From contig OZ240215.1 of the NCBI GenBank assembly GCA_965197585.1, positions 672,001 to 736,000 on the forward strand: 64,000 nucleotides of DNA, in the 5' to 3' direction. This stretch comes from Dehalococcoidia bacterium (GTDB taxonomy: Bacteria > Chloroflexota > Dehalococcoidia > Plut-88900). Below the pieces are notes generated by a model. That model was not told where the DNA came from. It worked only from the letters and a program-made list of their open reading frames with translations, and did not search any database. The number at the start of each line of letters is the position of its first letter. The first letter of the stretch is position 1. Made by a program: the position numbers and the translations under genes. Shown here piece by piece: positions 8,158 through 34,859 of this stretch.

Positions 8158-9757
<1,600 letters not shown>

Positions 9758-9831
9758 AGTTTATCTTTTTCTTACCTAGCTATTGGCTTCCTTCCACTAT
9801 TCAGTTGTTAAGGTGCAAATGTGCAAGGGGT

Positions 9832-12538: not shown

Positions 12539-12840
12539 CCTCATCCTAGCCCTCTCCCGTCAAAGGGAGAGGGGATAGGACTCCGCCCCCCAGATTCCTC
12601 GCGGGGCCTCGGAATGACAGTGTAGGGGGGCTTGGTTGGGACGACGGCGGGCGTGACGGATTGGCGGAGGTGAGCCGCCCCCCGCTCGATCGTTCGATCC
12701 GCCTCAGCGGACTTATAGCAGACTCAGGGTGAGCGGGCCATCGGCCGGGGGATGGATTCACGCCTCGGCGCATCTTCGACCGGCTCTCGGCGGCCGGAAT
12801 GATCCGCCTAAGGCGGACAGGCTTCCCTCGGGGGTGGGTG
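12539..12840. repeat. Cluster of REP-like palindromes (three families plus nested TCCGCCT..GCGGA hairpins)
   Basis: CCTAGCCCTCTCCC..GGGAGAGGGG; AGATTCCTCGCG..CCTCGGAATGACA; CCGCTC..TTCGA..CTCAGGGTGAGCGG; each recurs elsewhere in the window. Confidence 0.8.
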
Positions 12841-19952: not shown

Positions 19953-21506
19953 ATGAATACGCCCGAATTTCTTCTTATATCCAGCTCCATATGTCCCGAC
20001 CGGGAATCGATCATATTTGAGGGGAACCGCTGGAGTTTCTCAGACCTGGCTGATCGGTCTAACCGGCTGGCCAATGCGCTTGCGGGAATGGGTGTGGGGC
20101 AGGGAGACAAGGTGGGGATGCTGCAGGTCAACTGCAACGAATGCATTGAGGTCTATTTCGCAACGGCGAAGCTGGGAGCGACTTACGTACCCCTCAACTT
20201 CCGCGCCAGAGCCGAAGAGCTGGAGTTCATGATCAATTTCTCGGAGGCTTCGGCTCTATTTTTGGGGCAGCGCTACGTCAAAATGATTAGTTCGATGCGA
20301 GAACAGATTCCGGGAATGAAGAATTTGGTCTCGGTGGAAGGGCCGGCGGAAGGAATGCTGGACTATGAGTCGGTCATCGCCGAGGCGGACTCCGAAGAGG
20401 TGTTCACGGACATAGACGACAACGACACTTCCATTCTGATGTTTACCGCCGGTACTACGGGTCAGCCCAAAGGTGTGATGTTGACTCACGACAACCTGGC
20501 GACATACGTGCTAAACAACGTGAGCCCTGCCGACCCGGATATCGAGGAGAAGAACATCCTCACCGTGCCCTTGTATCACATAGCCGGAATGCAGGCGGTG
20601 CTGGCCGCAGTGTACGGAGGCCGGACCCTGGTTGTACAGCGACAGTTTGATCCGAGCGACTGGATGACCCTTGTGGAGACGGAGAGCGTGACCCGGGCCA
20701 TGATGGTTCCTACCATGCTTAAGCAGCTAATGGAACACGAGGAGTTCCCCAAGCGGAACCTGAGCAGCCTGCAAGTCATCACCTACGGCGCGGCCCCTAT
20801 GCCCGTGGAAGTGATAACAAAAGCTATCGAGGTGTTTCCCGGCACGAGGTTTATCAATGCCTTCGGGCAGACGGAATCGGCGTCGACGATTACGATGCTG
20901 ACTCCGGAGGACCACGTTATCGAGGGTTCGCCGGGGGAGAGGGCGATCAAACTGAAGAGGCTGGGGTCGATAGGGCGAGCACTGGGCGACACGGAAGTGA
21001 AGATATTCGACGAGGATGGGAGCGAGCTGCCGGTGGACGAGGTTGGGGAGATCGTGGCTCGGGGGCCGAGGGTTATGAAGGGCTACTGGAAGGCTGAAGA
21101 GGCAACCAACAGCACAATCCGAAACGGCTGGTTGTATACCGGGGACATCGGTTACATGGACGAGGCCGGGTATATCTTCTTGTCGGGTCGGGCGAAGGAC
21201 ATCATCATCCGGGCCGGGGAGAACATCTCGCCTGAGCAGGTGGAGGCGACTCTGCACTCGCACCCGGCCATCGACGAGGCGGCGGTTATCGGGGTGCCCA
21301 ACCCGCAGTGGGGCGAAACGGTCCGTGCAATAGTGGCGCTAAAGGCTGGGGCTCAGACTTCCGAGGCAGACATAATCGAACATTGCCGGGGCCAGCTGGC
21401 CAGCTTCAAGAAGCCGGAGTCGGTGATTTTCGTGGACTCTTTGCCCCGTAACCCATTGGGGAAGGTGCTGAAGCGTGTGTTGCGGGAGGAGTACGGGAAG
21501 GCGTAG
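19953..21506 (+). CDS. Long-chain acyl-CoA ligase (AMP-binding family)
   Basis: FTAGTTGQPKG, FGQTE, TGDIG, GRAKDIIIRAGENI, PRNPLGKV. Confidence 0.93.
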   Translation: MNTPEFLLISSSICPDRESIIFEGNRWSFSDLADRSNRLANALAGMGVGQGDKVGMLQVNCNECIEVYFATAKLGATYVPLNFRARAEELEFMINFSEASALFLGQRYVKMISSMREQIPGMKNLVSVEGPAEGMLDYESVIAEADSEEVFTDIDDNDTSILMFTAGTTGQPKGVMLTHDNLATYVLNNVSPADPDIEEKNILTVPLYHIAGMQAVLAAVYGGRTLVVQRQFDPSDWMTLVETESVTRAMMVPTMLKQLMEHEEFPKRNLSSLQVITYGAAPMPVEVITKAIEVFPGTRFINAFGQTESASTITMLTPEDHVIEGSPGERAIKLKRLGSIGRALGDTEVKIFDEDGSELPVDEVGEIVARGPRVMKGYWKAEEATNSTIRNGWLYTGDIGYMDEAGYIFLSGRAKDIIIRAGENISPEQVEATLHSHPAIDEAAVIGVPNPQWGETVRAIVALKAGAQTSEADIIEHCRGQLASFKKPESVIFVDSLPRNPLGKVLKRVLREEYGKA

Positions 21507-21524
21507 GGGTCGGGCCGGCCTCGG

Positions 21525-22202
21525 CTAAGATCCGGGGCCCAACTCCCGAGGGGTGGATTGGTCCGTACCCGCCTTTTCACTCTTGCCAAGCCGACGGTAA
21601 AGACTTTCACGGTCATCGTAGGCTTCGGTGTAGGACTTGTCCAGGTTAATTGCCTGGGTTAGGTCTTTAATTGCCTCGGGCAGACGGCCCTTATCGGCGA
21701 GCAGCAGTGCTCTCTCGTGGTAGGCCTCCGGGAGATTTGGATCGCTGATAATGGCCTTGTCCAGGGACTCGAGGGCTCGGGCGACGAGCCTTGGCTCGGA
21801 TCTGGGTGGAGCCGTTTCTGCCTGTTTGGCATAGACGATTCCTACGTTAAGCAGGGCTCGGGCGTCCTTCGGATTTATTTTCAAGGCCTTCTTGTATTCC
21901 TTGAGCGCGGAAGAAAAATGCCCTTTCCTGAGGTAGCAGGTGCCGAGGTTGCTGAGGAGAGCGCTGTCTTGCGGGCCGAACTTTTTGGCCGAGTTCAGGT
22001 CCCGGATGGCGGCGTTCAGGTTGCCGAGCCCGCCGTGAGCGAGACCTCGGTAGAAGTATGCGTGGGCATCCTTGGAGTTAAGGGCAAGGGCTTCATCAAG
22101 GTGGACTAGGGCATCTTCAAAGCGCCCATCTTTGACGGCTTTTTCGCCTTTACGGGAGCCGACGACCCAACTGAGGCCCCGGATTTTGTCAAGGATGCCC
22201 AT
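21525..22202 (-). CDS. Tetratricopeptide repeat protein
   Basis: Repeated TPR signatures (AYFYRG, NLGTCY, ALKINP, AYHERA). Confidence 0.85.
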   Translation of the reverse strand: MGILDKIRGLSWVVGSRKGEKAVKDGRFEDALVHLDEALALNSKDAHAYFYRGLAHGGLGNLNAAIRDLNSAKKFGPQDSALLSNLGTCYLRKGHFSSALKEYKKALKINPKDARALLNVGIVYAKQAETAPPRSEPRLVARALESLDKAIISDPNLPEAYHERALLLADKGRLPEAIKDLTQAINLDKSYTEAYDDRESLYRRLGKSEKAGTDQSTPRELGPGS

Positions 22203-22225
22203 AAAATAAAGAGGCCTAACGCGAG

Positions 22226-23227
22226 TCAGCCCGTTGACGCAACGTCGAAGATGCGGGGGGCCACGTGGGCGAGAAGGAGGTCGGTGGACATGATCATGGA
22301 GCGGCCTGAGGGGTCGATACGGGGAGATACTTCTACGAGGTCCATGGCGCCTATGGGATAGGCAGAGAGGACGCGGAGGATTGTCGCCATGATGTCAGGG
22401 GTGATGGCGTCGTTGACTACGGAGCCGGTGGCTGGGAAGAAACCGGTGTCTATAAAGTCGATGTCGACGGACATGTATATGTAGTCGCAGCCTGCGGCAG
22501 CGCGCTCACCGGCGCGTCTAGCGACCTCTTCGGGACCAATCCTTAGAACGTCGGCGGCGGTGAAGATGAGACCTCCGTGGGAGTCGATGGCGCTGATGGG
22601 CTCCTCGTCGGACCAGCCCTGAATTCCGATCCAGACCATGTTTGCGGGGCTGACAAGGTCGAGCTCGGAGATGCGGCGGGCGTTGGTGCCGTGGTTGTAC
22701 TTGCCCCAGACAGGGGTGTCGTCTCGGAAGTCGAGGTGGCCGTCGATGTGGATGTAGCCAATCTTGGGTTTCGGAGACATCTCGGAGACGGCTCGGGTGT
22801 AGCCTAGGCAGGATGGGTAGCCGACGTAGTGGTCGCCGCCCAGGCAGACGGAAAAGCCGCCCCGACGCACCACCTCTGCCACTCCACCGGCTATGCCCTC
22901 GGTGGACTTCATCACGTCGGTTGGGTAGACGTTGTAGTCGCCTACGTCTACGAGTCGGTTGGAAGCGGGGGTGGTGAGCCGGTTGCCGGATGTGACTTCA
23001 AGGATGCCGTCGGGGCCTGCGCTGCTTATGCGGTCGGCCATGGCGAGGGAGCCTTCCCTGATGCCTCGGGGGCCCATTCTGGTGCCGAAACGGCTGGTGT
23101 GGGTGCTGTCGTGGGGGGCTCCGCCGATCACGACCATCCCGCGCTCAACTTTGTCCAGGGCAACGTAGGGCGAGCCAAGGAAGGTGGCTGCGCCGATGTC
23201 TTCTACGTGTTCCAGCAATTCACTCAC
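22226..23227 (-). CDS. Ureohydrolase (arginase/agmatinase family), intact metal ligands (gene E)
   Basis: GGDHY, HIDGHLDF, NHGT, SVDIDFID; GTG start overlaps the upstream TGA. Confidence 0.9.
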   Translation of the reverse strand: MSELLEHVEDIGAATFLGSPYVALDKVERGMVVIGGAPHDSTHTSRFGTRMGPRGIREGSLAMADRISSAGPDGILEVTSGNRLTTPASNRLVDVGDYNVYPTDVMKSTEGIAGGVAEVVRRGGFSVCLGGDHYVGYPSCLGYTRAVSEMSPKPKIGYIHIDGHLDFRDDTPVWGKYNHGTNARRISELDLVSPANMVWIGIQGWSDEEPISAIDSHGGLIFTAADVLRIGPEEVARRAGERAAAGCDYIYMSVDIDFIDTGFFPATGSVVNDAITPDIMATILRVLSAYPIGAMDLVEVSPRIDPSGRSMIMSTDLLLAHVAPRIFDVASTG

Positions 23228-24219
23228 TTGGCGGCCTCGGCTACTCTGATTTTCTCGTCGATGAAGCGGACCAGCATCTCTGCGCCGCAGCGCTGGCCGG
23301 TCTTGGACAGGCTCATGGTCTCGATGAGAGGGTTTAAGCCACATAGGCTGACGCCGCCGACCGGGCCCCGGGCCAGGAGGGTTAGGGCCTCGAACAGGTC
23401 TACATTTCGGAGGCCGTCGAAGTGGGGAGTTCCGGTCATGGCTACGTAACCGCCGTCCATGACATCAATGTCAACGCCCACGAAGATACCGGAGCAGCCG
23501 TTGGAGGCGCGTTCCAGGGCTTCAGCTATCACATCGGGGATGCCGCGGCGGCGGACTTGCTCCGCGTCGATCATAGTAGCCGGCAGTCTGTTTGCAATCT
23601 GCCACTGGTCGAGCGGTACGTAGCCGTTTGCGCCGATCCATACCAAGTTCTTCGGGTGGACGGCCCCCGAGTCCAGGAGGCGGCGAACCGTCGCTCCGCG
23701 CCATACGTCTCCCCAGGCTGGGTCTCGGAGGCCGAGGTCAAGGCGGCTGGAGAGCTGGATGTAGCCAATATTCCCGCCGGTTGCTTCCCGGTAGCCCTGG
23801 GCCAAGGCGGAGGCGATGAAATGGTCGCCGCCGAGGGCTATGGGCACGGCACCCAGGCCGCTGATGCGTTTTGCTGCGTCCCGAAGGGTGGAAGACAGTA
23901 TCTCCCAGTCGACGTGGGAGACGGGTAGGTCACCCAGGTCACGGACACGTTCGCGGATGACGTTGGTGTCGGTGGGGAGCCGGGAGTTGATCTCGACGAG
24001 GGTTGCGTCCTGGGCGGTCATCATCTGGAAGTAGGTGGAGGTTTCTCGATAGGCCTTGGGCGCAAGGCGAGGGCCGAGCTGGTCGGGGGCGGATACATCG
24101 TAGGGCACGCCGAATACGCCGAACATGCCGGGTGTCAGCTCTTCGATAGTCCCTGTCGGGGCACCGATGAAGGTGAGCAAGCCACCTGTTTTGGGTGTCG
24201 GTCCTCTGCGGATTGGCAT
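23224..24219 (-). CDS. Ureohydrolase-fold protein lacking DxHxD ligands (gene D)
   Basis: GGDHF and VDIDVMD kept; DxHxD replaced by QLSSRLD. Confidence 0.88.
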   Translation of the reverse strand: MPIRRGPTPKTGGLLTFIGAPTGTIEELTPGMFGVFGVPYDVSAPDQLGPRLAPKAYRETSTYFQMMTAQDATLVEINSRLPTDTNVIRERVRDLGDLPVSHVDWEILSSTLRDAAKRISGLGAVPIALGGDHFIASALAQGYREATGGNIGYIQLSSRLDLGLRDPAWGDVWRGATVRRLLDSGAVHPKNLVWIGANGYVPLDQWQIANRLPATMIDAEQVRRRGIPDVIAEALERASNGCSGIFVGVDIDVMDGGYVAMTGTPHFDGLRNVDLFEALTLLARGPVGGVSLCGLNPLIETMSLSKTGQRCGAEMLVRFIDEKIRVAEAAK

Positions 24220-24309
24220 TACGGCCTCGTCATCCTAAGCATCAGACTGTCTGCCAGATTTGCTTGATGTGGAGGGGATTGGGGGGAGAGAGGCGTGAGT
24301 GCACAAGTC

Positions 24310-24340
24310 CTAGATTCCTCGCGGAGCCTCGGAATGACAC
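24310..24340. repeat. REP-like palindrome between ureohydrolase pairs
   Basis: CTAGATTCCTCGCGGAGCCTCGGAATGACAC; similar copies at 12592, 57127 and 63039. Confidence 0.75.
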
Positions 24341-24448
24341 GGGGTGAGGGAGAGGGGATATGACTGCTGTGCTCACCCTGAGTGGCCAGACGACGGGGAG
24401 CATGGGCCAAGTGATTACGCTCTTCTTCATGCCAAATTGGTCGTGTTC

Positions 24449-25420
24449 TCAATAGATATCAAATATTCTTGGGGCGATTAGCTTGATTAGGGCCTCGGCG
24501 GCGAAACGGGGGGTGCGGCTGCCGGCGTCGAGGGGTGGGGAGGTCTCGACGAGGTCCATCGCACCGATGGGGAATTCGGAGAGGGGTCCGAGGATGCGGA
24601 ATAGGGTGGAGGCGGTCATGGCTCCCATAGTGACCGAGCCTGTGCCGTCGGAGAAGCCGGCGTCAATGACGTCGATATCGAAGCTCATGTAGATGGAGTC
24701 ACAGCCCTTGAGGGCTAGCTCGGCTGCGCGGCGTCCGACGGTCTCGGGGCCCATCTCCTCTACGTCTTCGCTGGTGAAAATCGTGCCTCCGTAGCGGCGG
24801 ATGAGCTCGACCTGGTCCAGGTAGCAGGGGCCCTGGATACCTATGAAAACCATGTTGGCGGGTTCCATGGCGTCCAGCTCCGAGATCCGGCGGGCGTTGG
24901 TGCCATTCATGTACTTGCCGTAGGGGCCGTAGGAGTCGGCGAAGTCGAGGTGGCCGTCTATGTGAATATAGCCGACCCGGGCGTTGGGCCTGAGTTGTCC
25001 AAGGGCACGGGTGTAACCGAGGCAGGATGGGTAGCCGACGTAATGATCGCCGCCCAGGCAGACGGAGAAGCCGCCCCGCAGCACGACTTCCGAGACGCCG
25101 CCGGCGATGCCCTCGGTAGCTTTCATAACGTCGGAGGGGTAACTGTTGAAATCGCCGACATCTACGAGGGGGGATTGGGTGGGGCGAATCAGGGTGCGCC
25201 CGGTGGACACGTCTATCAACCCCTCTTCGGCGCGGTCGAAACTCTGGGCCAGGGGCAGGGAGTGCTCGCGGATGCCTCGGGGGCCGTACCTCTCGCCGAA
25301 GCGGTCTCGGAGGCTGTGAGGAGCGCCGCTTATTACTGTCATGCCGGGCTGGACATCGGAGAGGCCGACGAGTGGGGCTCCCATAAAGGTGGGAGACGAT
25401 GTGTATGCGTAGTCTTGCAT
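24449..25420 (-). CDS. Ureohydrolase (arginase/agmatinase family), intact metal ligands (gene C)
   Basis: Start MQDYAY; GGDHY, HIDGHLDF, SFDIDVID; strongly similar to gene E. Confidence 0.9.
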   Translation of the reverse strand: MQDYAYTSSPTFMGAPLVGLSDVQPGMTVISGAPHSLRDRFGERYGPRGIREHSLPLAQSFDRAEEGLIDVSTGRTLIRPTQSPLVDVGDFNSYPSDVMKATEGIAGGVSEVVLRGGFSVCLGGDHYVGYPSCLGYTRALGQLRPNARVGYIHIDGHLDFADSYGPYGKYMNGTNARRISELDAMEPANMVFIGIQGPCYLDQVELIRRYGGTIFTSEDVEEMGPETVGRRAAELALKGCDSIYMSFDIDVIDAGFSDGTGSVTMGAMTASTLFRILGPLSEFPIGAMDLVETSPPLDAGSRTPRFAAEALIKLIAPRIFDIY

Positions 25421-25434
25421 AGTTAAATCATGGC

Positions 25435-26418
25435 CTAGGGATAGGCAAGGGCCTCGCCGGCCAGGAAGCGGATGACTATCCAGGCCCCGAGTCGGGGGCC
25501 GGTAGCAGATAGCATGTTCACGGTGGGATTCATGCCCACGAGGTCGAGGGCGCCGGCCTTCTTTCGGCGGAGGATGTCGACGGCTTTGAGAAGCTCGACG
25601 TTGGTAAGGCCATCGAAGCACGGGTCTGCGGTGGCGGCGACGATACCGCCGTCCATAACGTCGAAGTCGATGCTGACGTAGACGGAGTCGCATCCATCTC
25701 CTGCAACTTCCATTGCGTTTTCGACCACGTTCTGCGGGCCTCGGCGGCGCACGTCTTCGAGAGTGAAGACGGACAACTCCCTTTCTTGTGCGAAGTCCCA
25801 CTCCTCTCGGCGGAGGTAGCCGCTCACGCCAATCCAGACCATATTCTTCGGGGCAACGGCCCCGGAGTCCAGGATGCGCCGGGCGGTTGCGCCCCGCCAA
25901 ACGTCTCCCCAGACCGGGTCCCGGGTCCCGAGATCAAGGCGGCTGGAAAGTTGGACGTAGCCGATGCCTCGGCCCGTACGCTCGCGGACGGCGTCGGCGT
26001 AGCCGAGGCAGAGGGGGTAGGAGACGAAATGGTCTCCGCCGAGGACCACGGGAGTCGCACCTGTGGAGGCTACTTCGTTGAGAGAGCGTCGGAGCTCTTT
26101 TTCGGTGCGGGGCCAGTCGAGGGGGTAGGCATTGAAGTCGCCGAGGTCGAGGATTTGCGAGCGACGGGCGCCGCTCATGCGGTCGCCGGTGGTGATTTCA
26201 ACGAGGTCGGAGCGGGAGAATGCGCCGGCGTAGTAGCCGGAGCTATCCCGGATGGCTCGGGGGCCGAATCTCGACCCAATCTTGGTAGTGCAGGACAGAT
26301 CATAGGAAACGCCGCAGATTGCAGCCATCCCTTCTTTGAGGTGCTCCAAGTCGCCTCGGGGCAGATCCATGAAGGTTGTTATGCCCGGTGTGGATACGGG
26401 GGCCGACTGTGTGGTCAT
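25435..26418 (-). CDS. Ureohydrolase-fold protein lacking DxHxD ligands (gene B)
   Basis: GSRFGPRAIR, GGDHF, QLSSRLD, SIDFDVMD; similar to gene D. Confidence 0.88.
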   Translation of the reverse strand: MTTQSAPVSTPGITTFMDLPRGDLEHLKEGMAAICGVSYDLSCTTKIGSRFGPRAIRDSSGYYAGAFSRSDLVEITTGDRMSGARRSQILDLGDFNAYPLDWPRTEKELRRSLNEVASTGATPVVLGGDHFVSYPLCLGYADAVRERTGRGIGYVQLSSRLDLGTRDPVWGDVWRGATARRILDSGAVAPKNMVWIGVSGYLRREEWDFAQERELSVFTLEDVRRRGPQNVVENAMEVAGDGCDSVYVSIDFDVMDGGIVAATADPCFDGLTNVELLKAVDILRRKKAGALDLVGMNPTVNMLSATGPRLGAWIVIRFLAGEALAYP

Positions 26419-26431
26419 AAGGGTCTCGGAC

Positions 26432-27412
26432 TCACGCCCCGAAAACGGAGGGCGCCATAAGTTCGATAACGGCCTGGGCTGCGAGTCGTTCGGAGCGGCC
26501 TCGGACGTCGAGCCCAGGGGCTACCTCGACGACGTCAAGGGCGGCTATCCTTGGGAACTCCGAAAGCTCACGCGTGATAGCGAGCAGGTCGCGGGGAGTA
26601 AGGCCACCAACTACAATCTCGGCGGTTCCGGATGCGTAGCCGGAGTCGACAACGCCGATGTCGAGGCTAAGGTAGACGGCGTCGCAGTCCTGGCCGGCGA
26701 TTTCCAACGCCCGGCGTACTGTCGCCTCGGGGCCTTCGGCTTTAACTGAGTCGGCGGTTATTACGGTGACGCCCTGTGAGCGAGCGTATTCCCACTCCCG
26801 GTAGGGTATATAGCCCTGGGTACCGACAAATACCGTGTTACGGGCCTCGACGGCGCCGGAGTCCAGGATGCGGCGTACTGAAGCGCCGGACCAATCGGGG
26901 CCGTATTGGGAGCCGGGGTCGGCCAGGGAGAGTTCAGCGGAGATGCGTATCAGGCCGAGACTGCGGCTTGAACCCGCCTTCACGCCTTCCATCAGAGGGA
27001 ATGTGATAAACCGGTCTCCGCCGAGGGCCACGGGGCAGGCACCGGACTCGGCTATTCGGGAGAAGGCGGACCGGCAAGCATCAAGGTTGCCGGGAAGGTC
27101 CAGAGGAGAAAGGGTGAGGTCTCCGAGGTCGAGAAGGGATGAGGGTTGAGGTACGTGGAGCACCCGGCCAGATATGACGTCGATGAGGGCGCCGGACTCG
27201 GAGGCCTCGAGCTCGTAGATGAAGTCGGCGCTGGCTTCTCGGATGGCCCGGGGGCCCTGCCTGACGCCTTGGCGGGAAGTGGAGGAGCCGTCGTGGGGGA
27301 CGCCGATGACGGCTACGCAACCGGGCCCGACGTCCTGGAATCCGGCTCTCGGGGCACGGGCGAAGGTGTTGATACCGGCGAACGAGGGCAGAAGGTCTCG
27401 TTGGTAGGGCAA
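26432..27412 (-). CDS. Ureohydrolase-fold protein lacking most metal ligands (gene A)
   Basis: GVPHD, GPRAIR, GGDRF (His lost), RISAELS, SLDIGVVD, DVVEVAP; TTG start with GGAGG RBS. Confidence 0.88.
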   Translation of the reverse strand: MPYQRDLLPSFAGINTFARAPRAGFQDVGPGCVAVIGVPHDGSSTSRQGVRQGPRAIREASADFIYELEASESGALIDVISGRVLHVPQPSSLLDLGDLTLSPLDLPGNLDACRSAFSRIAESGACPVALGGDRFITFPLMEGVKAGSSRSLGLIRISAELSLADPGSQYGPDWSGASVRRILDSGAVEARNTVFVGTQGYIPYREWEYARSQGVTVITADSVKAEGPEATVRRALEIAGQDCDAVYLSLDIGVVDSGYASGTAEIVVGGLTPRDLLAITRELSEFPRIAALDVVEVAPGLDVRGRSERLAAQAVIELMAPSVFGA

Positions 27413-27520
27413 AGCCGCCTCCCTTCTAGGGTTCGGATTATAGCATGGGGGTGGGGGAGGAATTTGAGTCAGTACTGTGTGTATGCCAGGGCCGGGGTGA
27501 CGGATTGGCAGTGCGGGGCC

Positions 27521-27710
27521 GCCCCCCGCTCAACCCTTCGATCCGCCTCAGCGGACTTACAGCAGGCTCAGGGTGAGCGGCCCCTCCCCACGGGATGGAT
27601 ATGCGCTTCGGCGCATCCTCCGTAGGCGGACGTTTCGCTTACAGCCGGCACTCGGCGGCCAGAATGATCCGCCTTAGGCGGACAGGCTCCCCTCGGGTGG
27701 GGGAGGGGTT
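27521..27710. repeat. Composite REP-like cluster homologous to 12679-12840
   Basis: CCGCTCAACCCTTCGATCCGCCTCAGCGGACTTACAGCAGGCTCAGGGTGAGCGG ... GAATGATCCGCCTTAGGCGGACAGGC. Confidence 0.8.
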
Positions 27711-27712
27711 CG

Positions 27713-27741
27713 TTGACTGAGGTAGGGGGTTTGCCTACAAT
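27713..27741 (+). promoter_or_regulatory. alaS operon promoter
   Basis: TTGACT-17 nt-TACAAT. Confidence 0.65.
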
Positions 27742-27785
27742 CGTGAGACCAGTAATGTGGGCGTTACACAAGGAAAAGAGCAGAG

Positions 27786-30572
27786 TTGAATAGCGACGAG
27801 CTAAGGCGAACATTCCTGTCATTCTATGAATCGAAGGGACATCTGGTCATACCCAGCTCGTCTCTGATACCCATTGGGGACCCGACCCTGTTGTTGACCA
27901 GCGCAGGGGTGGTGCAGATCAAGCCGTTCTTCACGGGAGAGGCCAAGGCGCCCGCGCCTCGGATAGCCTCGTGCCAGAAGTGTTTTCGCACCACGGACAT
28001 CGACTCCGTGGGAGATGCAGACCATCTGACCTTCTTCGAGATGCTGGGCAATTTCAGTGTTGCGGACTACTTCAAGAAGGAGGCGATAGACTGGGCGTGG
28101 GAGCTAGTGACGGAGCGGCTTAAGCTGCCGCCGGAAAAACTCTGGGTAAGCGTTTTTCTGAGTGACGACGAGTCGTACGAATTGTGGCGGGCCTTAGGGG
28201 TGCCGGAAGAACGGCTGGTGCGGTACGACGAAAGCGAGAACTGGTGGGGGCCTCCGGGGGACTCGGGGCCGTGCGGGCCGTGCACCGAGATCTACTACGA
28301 TTTCGGGGAGGAGCTTTCGTGCGGCAAGCCTGACTGCGGCCCGGCCTGCGACTGCAACCGATTCACGGAGTTCTACAACCTGGTACTCACCGAGTATTAC
28401 CAGGATACGGGGGGCAATCGGACGCCCCTGCCGAGCGGGAACATAGACACGGGGATGGGGCTGGAACGCACGGCGGCGATTATGCAGGGCGTTACCAACG
28501 TCTACGATACCGACGGGTTCCAGGCCATCATGGGGAAGGTGTCGGGGGTGACCGGGCGCACGTATGGGTCGGACAAGGAAACGGATGCGGCGATGCGGGT
28601 GCTGGCGGAGCACGCCCGGGGCACAACGTTCCTGATCAGTGACGGCGTGGTGCCGGGTAACGAGGGCCGGGGGTACGTGCTGCGGAGGATACTGAGGCGG
28701 GCGGTGACGTTTGCGCGGAAGCTCGGGGTCCGGGAGCCGGTGCTGGTGACGATAGCCGAGACGGTTATCGCGAATATGGAAGAGGCTTACCCGGATTTGG
28801 GGAGGAACCGGGAGTTCGTGTTGAAGGTTATCGAGCAGGAAGAGGCTCGGTTCCACGATACGCTGGACGCGGGGTTAGAGATACTCGACGGCATGGTTGG
28901 GTATAGACACTATTTTGCTCCAGTTGTAGAAAAAATTCTGAATGGGGATACGGATGCGAATGCTCCCGATTCAATCGATAATTTGATGGAAGCCGATCAC
29001 CTTTTGGAAGTGATGCGTGAATCGGGCAGCAACATTGGTGATAAAGGCAATCACATTGAGATGCTCAGATGGTCAGAGAACCTGCTAGGGAAAGAAGTGT
29101 TTGGGCTATATGACACTTATGGGTTCCCGCCCGAGTTGACGGAGGAAGTAGCTGCGGGCCACGGGTTCGGGGTGGACATGGAGGGGTTCGAGCGGGAGAT
29201 GGAGGCGCAGAGGGCGAGGAGCAGGTCGGCGAAGGCGTTTGGGAAGGACAAGATGTCGGAGGCGTATGCGGCTGTGGGGCTGGGGGCGACCCGGTTCACG
29301 GGGTATGAGACGCTGGCCGGTGAGTCGGTGGTGGTGGGGCTGCTGAGGGAAGGGGTGTCGGTGCAGAGGGTTGGGGGAGGGGAGGAGTTGGAAGTGGTGA
29401 CGATGGAGACGCCGTTCTATGCGGAGGGCGGAGGACAAGTCGGGGACCGAGGTGAGATCACAGGATCGGTCGGCCGGTTTATTGTCGAGGACACGCAGGC
29501 TACGATGTTGGGGTTCTACGTGCATCGGGGGAGGGTTGTCGATGGGGAGATGGTTGTTGGGGACCCGGTGACGATGGAGGTGGACATAAGGCATCGGAGG
29601 GAGTCGGCGAGGAACCACACGGCGACACACTTGCTGCACGCGGCGCTGAGGCAAGTGCTAGGGCAGCACGTCAGGCAGGCGGGGTCGCTGGTTGCGCCGG
29701 ACAGGCTGAGGTTCGACTTCACGCATCCGGTCGGGCTAGGAAGAGCCGACCTGCACGACATCCGAAACCTGGTGAATGAAAAGATCAGCTCTGATCTTGA
29801 GATTACCAAGGATGAGGCCCCGTATGCGGAGGCGATATCGAGGGGGGCGCTGGCGTTCTTCGGGGACAAGTATCCGGACGTGGTCAGGCTGGTGTCGATG
29901 GGGGATGGGGATGACAGATTCAGCTTCGAGGTTTGCGGCGGAACGCACGTGGCCCGGACGGGAGAGGTGTGGAATTTCCAGGTAACGGATGAGGGGAGCA
30001 TAGGATCGGGGCTGAGGAGGATCGAAGCGGTGACTGGGGGCTCGGTGCAGGACCTGCTGGTGCGGCGGTACGACCTGGTCGAAGAGCTATCGGCGCAACT
30101 GAAATCGCCGGCGGAAGAGATCGCCGACAAGGTAGCGGCCTTAGTGGAAGAGCGAGACTCGGAGCGCAGGCGGGCTGACCGGCTGGAGAGGGATGCAGCG
30201 CGTCGGGAGGCAGAGGGGCTGCTGGGCCGGGTGCAGGACGTGGATGGAGCAAAGGTGGTTGCGGCTCGGGTGGACGCGCCGAATGTTGAGACGATGCGAG
30301 AGATGGGCGACTTTCTGAAGGCTAAGCTAGGGAGCGTGTTCGTGGTGCTGGCGTCGGTGATCAACGACAGGCCGATGTTCGTCGCAATGGCGACGCCTGA
30401 CCTAGTGGCCAAGGGAGTACACGCCGGGAATATCGTGAAGCAAGTGGCGAAGGTAGCGGGAGGGGGTGGGGGTGGGAGTCCAGAGATGGCGCAGGCGGGT
30501 GGCAAGGACAAGAGCAAGGTGTCGGCAGCGTTGGAGGAAGTGGCAAGGTTGGTGAGAGAGGGTGGGAGCTAG
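27786..30572 (+). CDS. alaS: Alanine--tRNA ligase
   Basis: DPTLLLTSAG, TFFEMLGNFS, DTGMGLER, LYDTYGFP, NHTATHLLH, CGGTHV, GGGGG DHHA1 domain. Confidence 0.98.
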   Translation: MNSDELRRTFLSFYESKGHLVIPSSSLIPIGDPTLLLTSAGVVQIKPFFTGEAKAPAPRIASCQKCFRTTDIDSVGDADHLTFFEMLGNFSVADYFKKEAIDWAWELVTERLKLPPEKLWVSVFLSDDESYELWRALGVPEERLVRYDESENWWGPPGDSGPCGPCTEIYYDFGEELSCGKPDCGPACDCNRFTEFYNLVLTEYYQDTGGNRTPLPSGNIDTGMGLERTAAIMQGVTNVYDTDGFQAIMGKVSGVTGRTYGSDKETDAAMRVLAEHARGTTFLISDGVVPGNEGRGYVLRRILRRAVTFARKLGVREPVLVTIAETVIANMEEAYPDLGRNREFVLKVIEQEEARFHDTLDAGLEILDGMVGYRHYFAPVVEKILNGDTDANAPDSIDNLMEADHLLEVMRESGSNIGDKGNHIEMLRWSENLLGKEVFGLYDTYGFPPELTEEVAAGHGFGVDMEGFEREMEAQRARSRSAKAFGKDKMSEAYAAVGLGATRFTGYETLAGESVVVGLLREGVSVQRVGGGEELEVVTMETPFYAEGGGQVGDRGEITGSVGRFIVEDTQATMLGFYVHRGRVVDGEMVVGDPVTMEVDIRHRRESARNHTATHLLHAALRQVLGQHVRQAGSLVAPDRLRFDFTHPVGLGRADLHDIRNLVNEKISSDLEITKDEAPYAEAISRGALAFFGDKYPDVVRLVSMGDGDDRFSFEVCGGTHVARTGEVWNFQVTDEGSIGSGLRRIEAVTGGSVQDLLVRRYDLVEELSAQLKSPAEEIADKVAALVEERDSERRRADRLERDAARREAEGLLGRVQDVDGAKVVAARVDAPNVETMREMGDFLKAKLGSVFVVLASVINDRPMFVAMATPDLVAKGVHAGNIVKQVAKVAGGGGGGSPEMAQAGGKDKSKVSAALEEVARLVREGGS

Positions 30573-33044: not shown

Positions 33045-33110
33045 AGCCGAGTCAAAGCAAGACACGGCAAACGCAAGTATTTTCATTGAATCTTTTGATT
33101 GCGGACGCGC

Positions 33111-34859
33111 ATGAATAATCGAGGTCAAATTAAGATCGGGGACTGGAACGTATACCTGATCGGGTTTTCAGGGAGCGGGAAGTCGGCTATCGGGCGCCGG
33201 TTGGCGAGGCGGATGCGTCGGAAGCACGTGGACATGGACGACGAGATTGTCGCGAGGTCAGGGACGCCGATACCGGAGATATTCCGTCGGGAGGGGGAGC
33301 CGGGCTTCAGGTCTAGGGAGAAGGAGTTGCTGGAGGAGCTCAGCGGACGGAAGAGGCTGATAGTGTCGACGGGGGGTGGAGTGCCCCTGGCCCCGGGTAA
33401 CCGAGCGGCGATGGCAAAGAGTGGCGTGATCGTGTGCCTGGAAGCCAAGCCGGACTTCCTCTACGGGAGGCTTAAGAGGCACCTGGGGGACGAATCGAAA
33501 GGGCAGGTGCGCCCGCTGCTGGAGGGGGACGAACCGAAGAAGAGGATCGAGGCGCTGAAGGAGTACCGGCAGCGCTTCTACGCAACCGCTGACTGGACCG
33601 TACACACTGACGACCTGACGACTGATGAAGTGGTGAGGGAAGTGATCAGAGGAGTCCGATTCGCGCAGCGCAGGTTCGGGCGGCGGAAAGATGCGGGCTC
33701 GGTGTTTCCGCCGGAGGGATCACTAGGACGGGAGTCGGAGGCACCGTACTGCCGGGACATGGGAGCTTCCTTCGTTGTAGAGACGCCTGGGGGAAGATAC
33801 CCGGTGTTCGTCGGGTGGGGAACACTTTCGGAGCTGGGCCAGCGGATGAGAAACCTGGGGCTTTCAGGGAAGGCGGCTTTGATATCCGACGCCGCAGTTT
33901 ATGAGATTCACGGTGTGAAGGCGCTGGAGTCTCTGAGGTCGGCGGGATTTGAGGCGGCCAGCTATGCCGTGCCTGCCGGGGAACGGAGCAAGTCTGAGGA
34001 CGCGCTCACCAGGATATACGACTGGATGGTGGAGCAGAGGTTGGAGCGGGGAAGCACTGTGGTGGCGCTGGGGGGTGGGGTGGCGGGTGACCTGGCCGGG
34101 TACGCCGCAGCGACGTTCCTGCGAGGTGTGCCTTTAGTGCACGCACCGACTAGCCTATTAGCCATGACGGACTCGGCGATAGGTGGGAAGGTTGCGATAA
34201 ACCATCCGCGGGCGAAAAACCTGATCGGGGCGTTCTACCAGCCGCGCATGGTGCTATCGGACGTGGAGACTTTGACAACGCTGCCGGCTCGGGAGCTGGC
34301 GTCGGGGTGGGCGGAGACGATAAAGCACGGGATGATCATGGACCCGGAATTGCTGGACGCGCTTGAAAAGGACTTGGAGAAGGTGTTGGCCCTGGACCCT
34401 GAGATGACGACGGATATAGTGAAGCGGAGCTCGGGGCTGAAGGGCAAGGTGGTGAGCGGCGATGAGAAAGAAGCCGGGTGGAGGATGATACTCAACTTCG
34501 GGCACACGATAGGGCACGCCCTGGAAGCGGCGACAGAATACGGTACTTTGCTGCACGGAGAGGCGGTGTCCATCGGGGCAGTGGGGGCGGCGAGGCTGAG
34601 CAGGGAGCATGCGGGGTTGGGGGATGAAGTGGTGGATCGGCTCTTGGGCTTGCTGAACAGGTTCGGGCTGCCAACGTCGATGCCCGACTTGGACGCAGAC
34701 AGGCTGATAGAGGCGATGTTCCTGGACAAGAAGGTGCGGGGCAAGGCGATCCGCTGGGTTCTGCTGGAGGATATCGGGAAGCCGGTGATCAGAGACGACA
34801 TTCCGATGGAGTCGGTGAGGGAGGTGTTGGCAGGGCTCGCGGAAGGGGAGAAAACATAG
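33111..34859 (+). CDS. aroB: Bifunctional shikimate kinase / 3-dehydroquinate synthase
   Basis: GFSGSGKS, GEPGFR, STGGG, RPLL followed by GGGVAGD, PTSLLAMTD, LNFGHTIGHALE, HGEAV. Confidence 0.95.
   Translation: MNNRGQIKIGDWNVYLIGFSGSGKSAIGRRLARRMRRKHVDMDDEIVARSGTPIPEIFRREGEPGFRSREKELLEELSGRKRLIVSTGGGVPLAPGNRAAMAKSGVIVCLEAKPDFLYGRLKRHLGDESKGQVRPLLEGDEPKKRIEALKEYRQRFYATADWTVHTDDLTTDEVVREVIRGVRFAQRRFGRRKDAGSVFPPEGSLGRESEAPYCRDMGASFVVETPGGRYPVFVGWGTLSELGQRMRNLGLSGKAALISDAAVYEIHGVKALESLRSAGFEAASYAVPAGERSKSEDALTRIYDWMVEQRLERGSTVVALGGGVAGDLAGYAAATFLRGVPLVHAPTSLLAMTDSAIGGKVAINHPRAKNLIGAFYQPRMVLSDVETLTTLPARELASGWAETIKHGMIMDPELLDALEKDLEKVLALDPEMTTDIVKRSSGLKGKVVSGDEKEAGWRMILNFGHTIGHALEAATEYGTLLHGEAVSIGAVGAARLSREHAGLGDEVVDRLLGLLNRFGLPTSMPDLDADRLIEAMFLDKKVRGKAIRWVLLEDIGKPVIRDDIPMESVREVLAGLAEGEKT

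Follow-up and report, generated by a model that had tools for sequence, protein, structure and literature searches.

In the 64,000-nucleotide stretch of contig OZ240215.1 (Dehalococcoidia bacterium, assembly GCA_965197585.1) which was analysed here and is called the window throughout, positions 22226-27412 hold five intact minus-strand open reading frames (ORFs) of the arginase family in tandem, designated A to E in the order of transcription. Two of them, C and E, retain a complete set of metal ligands, while A, B and D are ligand-depleted copies, referred to as dead in the following. By analogy with published systems, these genes would encode one or more heteromeric ureohydrolases, with C and E as catalytic subunits and A, B and D as required non-catalytic partners, which arose independently of MefH and DmgH, the enzymes that hydrolyse metformin and dimethylguanidine, a reading to which we give a probability of about 0.55. 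It is favoured because the dead copies are under selection, the genes are tightly linked, the same three types recur in other arrays and a precedent has been published. The array is organized as follows:

Gene A, 26432..27412, minus strand: 326 amino acids, TTG start behind the ribosome-binding site GAAGGGAGG; putative A-type non-catalytic subunit of arginase fold.
Gene B, 25435..26418, minus strand: 327 amino acids; putative B/D-type non-catalytic subunit with GGDH, SSRLD, DFD and VGMNP.
Gene C, 24449..25420, minus strand: 323 amino acids; predicted catalytic subunit with GGDH, DGHLD and DID, and YMNGT.
C-D spacer, 24220..24448: 229 nucleotides (nt), containing a 46-nt interspersed repeat once (core 24295-24340).
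Gene D, 23224..24219, minus strand: 331 amino acids; putative B/D-type non-catalytic subunit with GGDH, SSRLD, DID and CGLNP.
Gene E, 22226..23227, minus strand: 333 amino acids, GTG start overlapping the stop of D as GTGA; predicted catalytic subunit with six ligands and YNHGT.

All five proteins matched the Pfam arginase family (PF00491) with E-values from 7.6e-39 to 2.4e-58, the best being that of A, and with 134-198 bits against a cut-off of 22. None of them reached the curated cut-off of the NCBIfam agmatinase, arginase and formimidoylglutamase models (the SpeB, RocF and HutG equivalogs), the highest score being 126 bits for A against cut-offs of 229-302, with B-E lower; the agmatinase model NF002564 gave 86-126 bits for A-E against a cut-off of 302. 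In the source databases all five genes, dead and live alike, are nonetheless named 'agmatinase' or 'arginase family', which calls for caution with such annotations. A and B are separated by 13 nt, B and C by 14 nt and C and D by 229 nt, D and E overlap by 4 nt (GTGA), and identity is 45% between B and D and 58% between C and E. The initial annotation of this DNA had described five tandem ureohydrolases mixing dead and intact copies, with A, B and C about 14 nt apart and D-E coupled by a GTGA overlap, a picture which the ORFs, the PF00491 matches and the motif alignment fully support.

The ligand motifs were read from an alignment of the five proteins (A1), and the ligands are given as His101, Asp124, His126, Asp128, Asp232 and Asp234, which we take to be the arginase numbering. 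The first motif is GGDH in B-E and GGDR in A; the DxHxD motif is intact (DGHLD) in C and E and is replaced by SSRLD in B and D and by SAELS in A; the DxD motif is present in B-E and reads DIG in A. Counted by ligand, C and E have lost none of the six, B and D two (the equivalents of Asp124, the Asp that bridges both metals, and of His126) and A five, Asp232 alone being kept, and the complete set that defines catalytically competent members of the arginase superfamily is thus confined to C and E, a distribution also seen among the orthologues. The Glu of VEVAP is kept in the A type, and xGxNP is found at the same place in the B/D type. D also has a conserved N-terminal tail, MPIRRGPxPKTGG. The two catalytic proteins differ from one another in that C has Asn (YMNGT) where E (YNHGT) and the solved structures 9fek_A and 7esr_A have His, a substitution from which a difference in substrate or catalytic detail appears likely; the active-site motifs of C are near-invariant among its 12 orthologues. 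These motif assignments, including YMNGT versus YNHGT, agree with those first proposed, and two related proposals need amendment. The loop DPxWGDVWRGAT, attributed to the ligand-less copies in general, is common to B and D, but A has a diverged form, DPGSQYGPDWSGAS. Similarly, A had been regarded as a third structural subunit, and it does represent a separate old type, but not an odd one: in three more distant genera gene A reads GGDH / SSQL[DA] or SSQID / DxD (DIG in one locus, L019), like B and D, and its extra degeneration is confined to this genus.

In the GTDB family of the host, 12 of 12 genomes (four genera, the host genome included) have the genes in the order A-B-C-D-E, and all 60 orthologous ORFs are open, D of one genome (L013) having no usual start codon at the aligned position. 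The ratio of nonsynonymous to synonymous substitution rates (dN/dS; pairwise Nei-Gojobori method, NG86, on those of the 66 genome pairs with dS of 0.05-2) had a median of 0.21 for A (63 pairs), 0.09 for B (59 pairs), 0.11 for C (64 pairs), 0.17 for D (55 pairs) and 0.12 for E (64 pairs). Purifying selection thus acts on all five genes, the rate of A and D being roughly double that of the other three. Low dN/dS (0.09-0.21) together with frames that are all open means that the dead copies are selected; A, B and D are therefore under purifying selection, functional and not decaying, as had been supposed from their full length and conserved loop, and the check by synteny and dN/dS showed them to be neither neutral nor absent in relatives. 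That A, B and D might be pseudogenes on their way to decay is suggested by the loss of metal ligands, but is refuted by the uninterrupted ORFs of the 12 genomes, where dS reaches values above 1, by the dN/dS values and by the age of the clades, which are shared by several families, and can be considered as good as excluded.

The spacing of the genes is kept as well as their order, A and B being 13-17 nt apart in 11 of 12 genomes, B and C 5-18 nt apart in all 12, and D and E overlapping by 4 nt in 10. In one genome (G007; L017 3212-8887) an inversion in place has turned all five genes together, with alaS on one side and the genes for a TPR protein and an acyl-CoA ligase on the other, and the block therefore acts as a unit with the TPR gene outside it. 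The idea that the array holds together as a unit is thus sustained both by the constant order and by this inversion. The TPR gene itself (21525-22202, downstream of E in the window) was considered as a part of the system and rejected, since in G007 it lies on the A side, divergent from A, and it is missing from the array flanks in two genera. A sixth arginase-family gene (L031 3822-4901), of the intact stand-alone type, is located directly upstream of A in another genome (G010; L020/L031), an arrangement found in one genus. Contigs from RNA libraries (three libraries, two studies), derived from relatives 90-95% identical, cover parts of all five genes, one bridging the D-E junction and one the A-B junction; they provide a weak hint of expression, as they come from relatives and DNA carry-over is possible.

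Searches with B gave 221 aligned matches, of which about 100 clusters were of the dead type, showing the pattern His-Ser-[Gln/Arg]-Asp-Asp-Asp, and only 70 cluster representatives (50% identity) fell below E 1e-30 in a search of 1.84 billion proteins. In a FastTree phylogeny of 161 rows the dead type formed one clade (34 rows, support 95). An IQ-TREE analysis of 47 array members divided it into an A clade (8 rows, support 99) and a B/D clade (15 rows, support 100), in which B and D were sister groups with a D subclade at 99, while C (98) and E (96) stood together in a separate catalytic clade. These trees indicate that the dead copies fall into two old types, A and B/D, which split early and are shared by several families, and they agree with the previous description of B/D and C/E as reciprocal pairs of paralogues. 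Mirror-tree partial correlations of orthologue distances calculated over 19 genomes were 0.84 for B-C, 0.64 for C-E, 0.58 for A-D, 0.50 for B-E and 0.19 for D-E, values that are confounded by rate classes and by the relatedness of the genomes. For a C + B + A complex predicted from three alignments, with A as partner, the ipSAE scores were 0.12 and 0.14, the mark being 0.32; this prediction, made without controls, has no weight either way.

Related arrays were sought by pattern in one genome per species, which yielded 23 loci, all labelled Dehalococcoidia or Chloroflexota. Eleven are from the genomes of the family itself, ten (L032-L041) from another Dehalococcoidia group and two (L043 and L044) from one further genome. 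Nine tandem arginase-family genes are present in nine of the ten loci of the second group (L034 is cut by the contig end), in the order intact stand-alone type, extra intact/dead pair, A, B, C, D, E and a third catalytic gene; the extra pair (e.g., L035 1641-11068) is formed by an intact DAHPD gene and a dead GGAG/DSRSD gene. L044 is a five-gene array, A-B-C-D-E, and L043 a three-gene array, A-B-E. Over this range of 3-9 genes every array has exactly one A-type, one or two B/D-type and one to three C/E-type genes, and the commonest pattern is one A-type gene per array and one B/D-type gene per catalytic gene. Among the related arrays no flanking gene, transporter or regulator was conserved. 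In a sample of the class (401 genomes) the B/D-type (E<=1e-70) and C/E-type (E<=1e-108) matches were found in the same 12 genomes, in a sample of the phylum both were found in none but the host genome, and neither the 23 genome loci nor the class sample contained a case of dead types without live ones or the reverse.

Of 80 loci obtained by scanning metagenome contigs, eight contain at least two arginase ORFs. Seven of these, on marine contigs, share a layout in which one to three almost ligand-less genes precede a single DGHLD-type catalytic gene (L055, L062, L068, L070, L072, L076 and L080; e.g., L076 3997-8005). The marine catalytic gene is sister to the C/E clade (support 97 in both trees). 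The marine dead genes joined the A and B/D clades under a mixture model and were unstable long branches in the smaller LG+G4 tree, the three dead genes of L076 leaving both clades in this 39-row tree; as placement depends on the model, their link to the A and B/D clades is tentative. For one marine dead gene 172 relatives were found below E 1e-20, with source names including Gamma- and Alphaproteobacteria, Ruegeria, Rhodobacteraceae and Desulfococcaceae, and the 20 commonest motif patterns (54 of the 120 relatives listed) as well as 11 individual examples were all ligand-less. One of the marine dead genes has no solved-structure match at E<=1e-10.

The dead and live proteins could also work independently of each other, C and E as ordinary homo-oligomers with different substrates, and A, B and D as pseudoenzymes with a role of their own (binding or sensing of guanidino compounds, or regulation), all being adjacent by tandem duplication. 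Arginase-family enzymes are normally homomers (PMC11271267), the genome contains a tandem pair of two intact genes among its 15 arginase paralogues, and the most conserved stretch of B/D, DPVWGxVWRGATARR, which is mostly invariant in the 26 sequences of the B clade, is a loop beside the old active site, as would fit a retained pocket. However, mere adjacency does not agree with a strict order and a spacing of 4-18 nt or an overlap maintained over a divergence at which dS is saturated, nor with the constant company of dead and live types noted above, nor with the recurrence of the dead-plus-live layout in distant marine contigs, and we consider independent proteins a possible but rather unlikely explanation.

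The ligands which B and D still possess raise the question of whether these proteins (and A in other genera) are instead single-metal enzymes of a different step, the array encoding a short pathway. The equivalents of His101, Asp128, Asp232 and Asp234 are invariant in the 26 B-clade sequences, the ligands persist in most of the roughly 100 pseudo-type matches (of 221 aligned, 67 have HS[QR]DDD and 16 have HSQDDN), and among the five genes dN/dS is lowest for B. On the other hand, all of them lack precisely the Asp bridging both metals, the Glu of VEV is replaced too (xGxNP), A in this genus has lost nearly all ligands and yet stays under selection, and the more distant B/D-type relatives are fully ligand-less. 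To our knowledge, no active member of the arginase family with these ligand changes exists, and a pathway of this kind seems improbable, more so than a set of independent proteins.

The precedent for a heteromeric enzyme comes from metformin hydrolase (MefH, MfmAB or MetCaCb) and dimethylguanidine hydrolase (DmgH), which are alpha2beta4 hexamers with each alpha framed by two betas; two nickel ions are bound by alpha only, beta being without four to five of the six ligands, and hypAB chaperone genes are part of the operons (PMC11399263, PMC11271267, PMC11647477). The alpha subunit alone is inactive or insoluble (PMC11399263, PMC11271267). In a heteromer of the array proteins, the binuclear metal site would lie in C and E, whose substrate would be a guanidino or related amidino compound, hydrolysed presumably with release of urea, and A, B and D would be obligatory partners for folding, solubility or assembly, or for shaping the substrate entrance, like the beta subunit of the metformin and dimethylguanidine hydrolases. 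A trimer of a catalytic, an A-type and a B/D-type subunit (A-B-C and A-D-E), doubled to a hexamer, is plausible, and in it the two non-equivalent beta places of the MefH trimer would be filled by two specialised proteins. If both trimers shared A, this would explain why A is always single; the 3:1 and 1:1 ratios of the marine contigs, for which it does not account, make this specific model rather unlikely. An equally speculative extension is an old and hitherto undescribed class of multi-subunit ureohydrolases, independent of metformin hydrolase, combining one catalytic subunit with two different dead paralogues, in which a shared A with alternative B-C, D-E (and E') modules might allow one operon to supply several enzymes that differ in their guanidino substrates, the more degenerate arrays of marine Proteobacteria being remote members; we regard this as unlikely.

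Several considerations weigh against a heteromer. Its formation rests on analogy and linkage, and the RNA-library contigs cannot prove transcription. Besides the five array genes the genome has 10 further arginase paralogues (15 in total), which denotes a lineage prone to paralogue expansion, where tandem duplication alone is therefore unremarkable. The 12 genomes of the class sample belong to one family, and the co-distribution of dead and live types in them is therefore a single evolutionary event. Subunit ratios vary among arrays (3:2, 2:1, 2:3 plus extras, 3:1 and 1:1), with no single stoichiometry fitting all of them. The invariant ligands of B are not obviously needed by a pure scaffold, and B may have a function of its own, with a single metal or in binding a ligand. 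Finally, among the neighbouring genes and in the Rfam search there was no transporter, regulator or riboswitch at the array which could hint at the substrate.

The host genome consists of a single contig of 3.43 Mb and is 92% complete by markers. One flank of the array carries alaS, ruvX and shikimate-pathway genes, divergently transcribed, and the other the TPR protein, the acyl-CoA ligase and enoyl-CoA hydratases. The Rfam scan of positions 21400-27900 at E<=1 found no riboswitch or other RNA family. A promoter and terminator scan was uninformative, with four promoter-like sites against 1.3 expected, none of which lay directly upstream of gene A or gene D on the minus strand. Matches to HypA (PF01155) and to the HypB/UreG/CobW family (PF02492) numbered zero in the 3.43-Mb genome, none being beside the array, so that the earlier remark that HypAB nickel chaperones are not adjacent extends to the entire genome. 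This absence argues against chaperone-delivered nickel, which is probably not the metal of C and E. Manganese is the default metal of the family. The genome also encodes the urease subunits ureABC, and urea from a ureohydrolase could therefore be used. The three urease genes are located at about 3324495-3326861 of the host contig (G000:C1; L045 5496-7862), between ORFs with cadherin domains and without accessory genes, in a genome that, as noted, gave no UreG/HypB/CobW or HypA match.

The element in the C-D spacer had been called a repetitive extragenic palindromic (REP) sequence. It is a real interspersed repeat, its 46-nt core having 93 further BLAST matches in the genome, but as an RNA it folds no better than shuffled sequences (z 0.36), and a hairpin is not supported. 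The repeat also occurs at positions 12592-12619 of the window and at L011 4281-4307. The widening of the C-D gap is specific to the genus: two other genera have a gap of 9-17 nt and a third has one of 89 nt, and in a sister genome (G001) a repeat copy widens the D-E gap instead. Among the arginase paralogues outside the array, L046 (G000:C1:597005-599105) consists of two ureohydrolase genes in tandem, both intact and closely related to each other, a live-live arrangement unlike that of the array, adjoining a DAO-family oxidase, an amidohydrolase and a PhyH-family dioxygenase. Two stand-alone degenerate arginase-like paralogues (G000:C1:1461164-1462273 and 1080429-1081619) have GQNSP in place of GGDH and are sisters (support 100) on a long branch. 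Elsewhere in the window, a complete bacterial 16S rRNA gene at 8161-9758 on the minus strand (RF00177, 1514 bits) is the sole Rfam match above the gathering score, and a single ORF of 586 amino acids at 33099-34859 on the plus strand is an aroK-aroB fusion, with a shikimate kinase domain and a 3-dehydroquinate synthase domain.

The initial annotation had likened the array to MfmAB-type heteromers, and a phylogeny with MfmA and MfmB had been proposed as a check. With the sequences of plasmid CP098607 (accession from PMC9800807), MfmA and MfmB were sisters (support 90) in a separate clade of 10 rows (support 95), and the array proteins fell outside the MetCa and MetCb clades. Forcing MfmB together with the dead subunits of the array made the tree 89.5 log-likelihood units worse (approximately unbiased test, p-AU 0.001; 39 rows, LG+G4 quick tree, the group having been named after earlier trees had been seen). 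Profile scores pointed in the same direction: C gave 110.6 bits with 9fek_A, 109.5 with 7esr_A, 59 with MfmB and 51 with MfmA, the profile of the B clade 129 bits with 7esr, 101 with MfmB and 83 with MfmA, and that of the A clade 182, 97 and 73 bits, respectively. From the separate clades and the rejected joint clade, the ligand loss of the array lineage was independent of that of MfmB, the lineage having arisen apart from MefH/DmgH, although the local pattern is similar, with GAQLD in MfmB and SSQLD in dead copies. A search of plasmids with C (tblastn) detected only ordinary agmatinase-like genes with at most 34% identity, and MfmAB did not surface.

Could the array nevertheless belong to the MfmAB/DmgH family proper and encode a metformin or dimethylguanidine hydrolase? 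The layout of adjacent live and dead arginase-family genes is the same, and MfmB likewise has Gln at the His126 position with the next Asp kept. Against such a membership stand the separate position of MfmA and MfmB and the AU result, the scores of the dead-subunit profiles, which are lower with MfmB (97-101 bits) than with the catalytic 7esr (129-182 bits), the absence of hypAB from the surroundings of the array and from the genome, and the strings SSQLD, SSRLD, GMNP, GLNP and HIDGHLD, which occur in none of the three supplementary text files of PMC11271267, where motifs split by line breaks or gaps would escape; this attribution is very unlikely. The likeness to MfmAB therefore stands for the live/dead gene layout, in principle, and fails for descent. 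Li et al. reported 56 MetCaCb-like pairs in four phyla (PMC11271267), and supplementary file 2 of the same paper lists a Chloroflexota pair of the MetCa/MetCb type (MBL77342.1 and MBL77343.1), though the text lists four other phyla.

By title and abstract, none of the papers listed for metformin hydrolase, for heteromeric or pseudoenzyme ureohydrolases and for agmatinase paralogues of Dehalococcoidia describes such arrays. The first descriptions of heteromeric ureohydrolases that include a dead subunit date from 2024 and concern only one clade, which is linked to a man-made drug. Should the array proteins form complexes, the same solution would have arisen a second time, in an old lineage elaborated to two specialised types of dead subunit and to as many as nine genes in tandem, and dead paralogues would represent a recurring design principle of the arginase family. 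This would also point to unknown guanidino substrates as nitrogen sources for uncultured Dehalococcoidia and possibly for marine Proteobacteria.

Among known systems, prozymes such as those of the trypanosomatid polyamine enzymes offer the general concept of a dead paralogue kept because the live one needs it; the likeness is in concept only, as fold and organisms differ. Guanidinopropionase, guanidinobutyrase (3nip, 3nio) and SpeB share the fold and the six-ligand site with C and E and convert guanidino acids or amines to urea, but they are homomers without dead partners, unlike the assembly proposed for the array. The structures 7esr and 7oi1 ('Probable agmatinase 2'), which we take to be GdmH of Synechocystis (Sll1077), are the best or second-best solved-structure match of C, of B and of both dead-subunit profiles (110-182 bits) and stand on the same agmatinase-like branch, the match being a distant one. 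GdmH is nickel-dependent with chaperones of its own (PMC11399263) and is encoded by a single gene, whereas the array comprises multiple genes and such chaperones were not found in its genome. MfmAB and DmgH share with the array the adjacency of one six-ligand and one degenerate gene, and the trimer of two dead subunits and one live in MfmAB matches the minimal A-B-E array. They differ in that the array has two old dead types, two catalytic genes and relatives of 3-9 genes, that B and D lack two ligands where MfmB lacks four to five, that the genome has no hypAB and that the host is a member of the Dehalococcoidia; moreover, MfmAB is an observed complex, while one is proposed for the array. By this analogy, the array most likely works like metformin hydrolase in principle, and represents a separate, older and more elaborate lineage.

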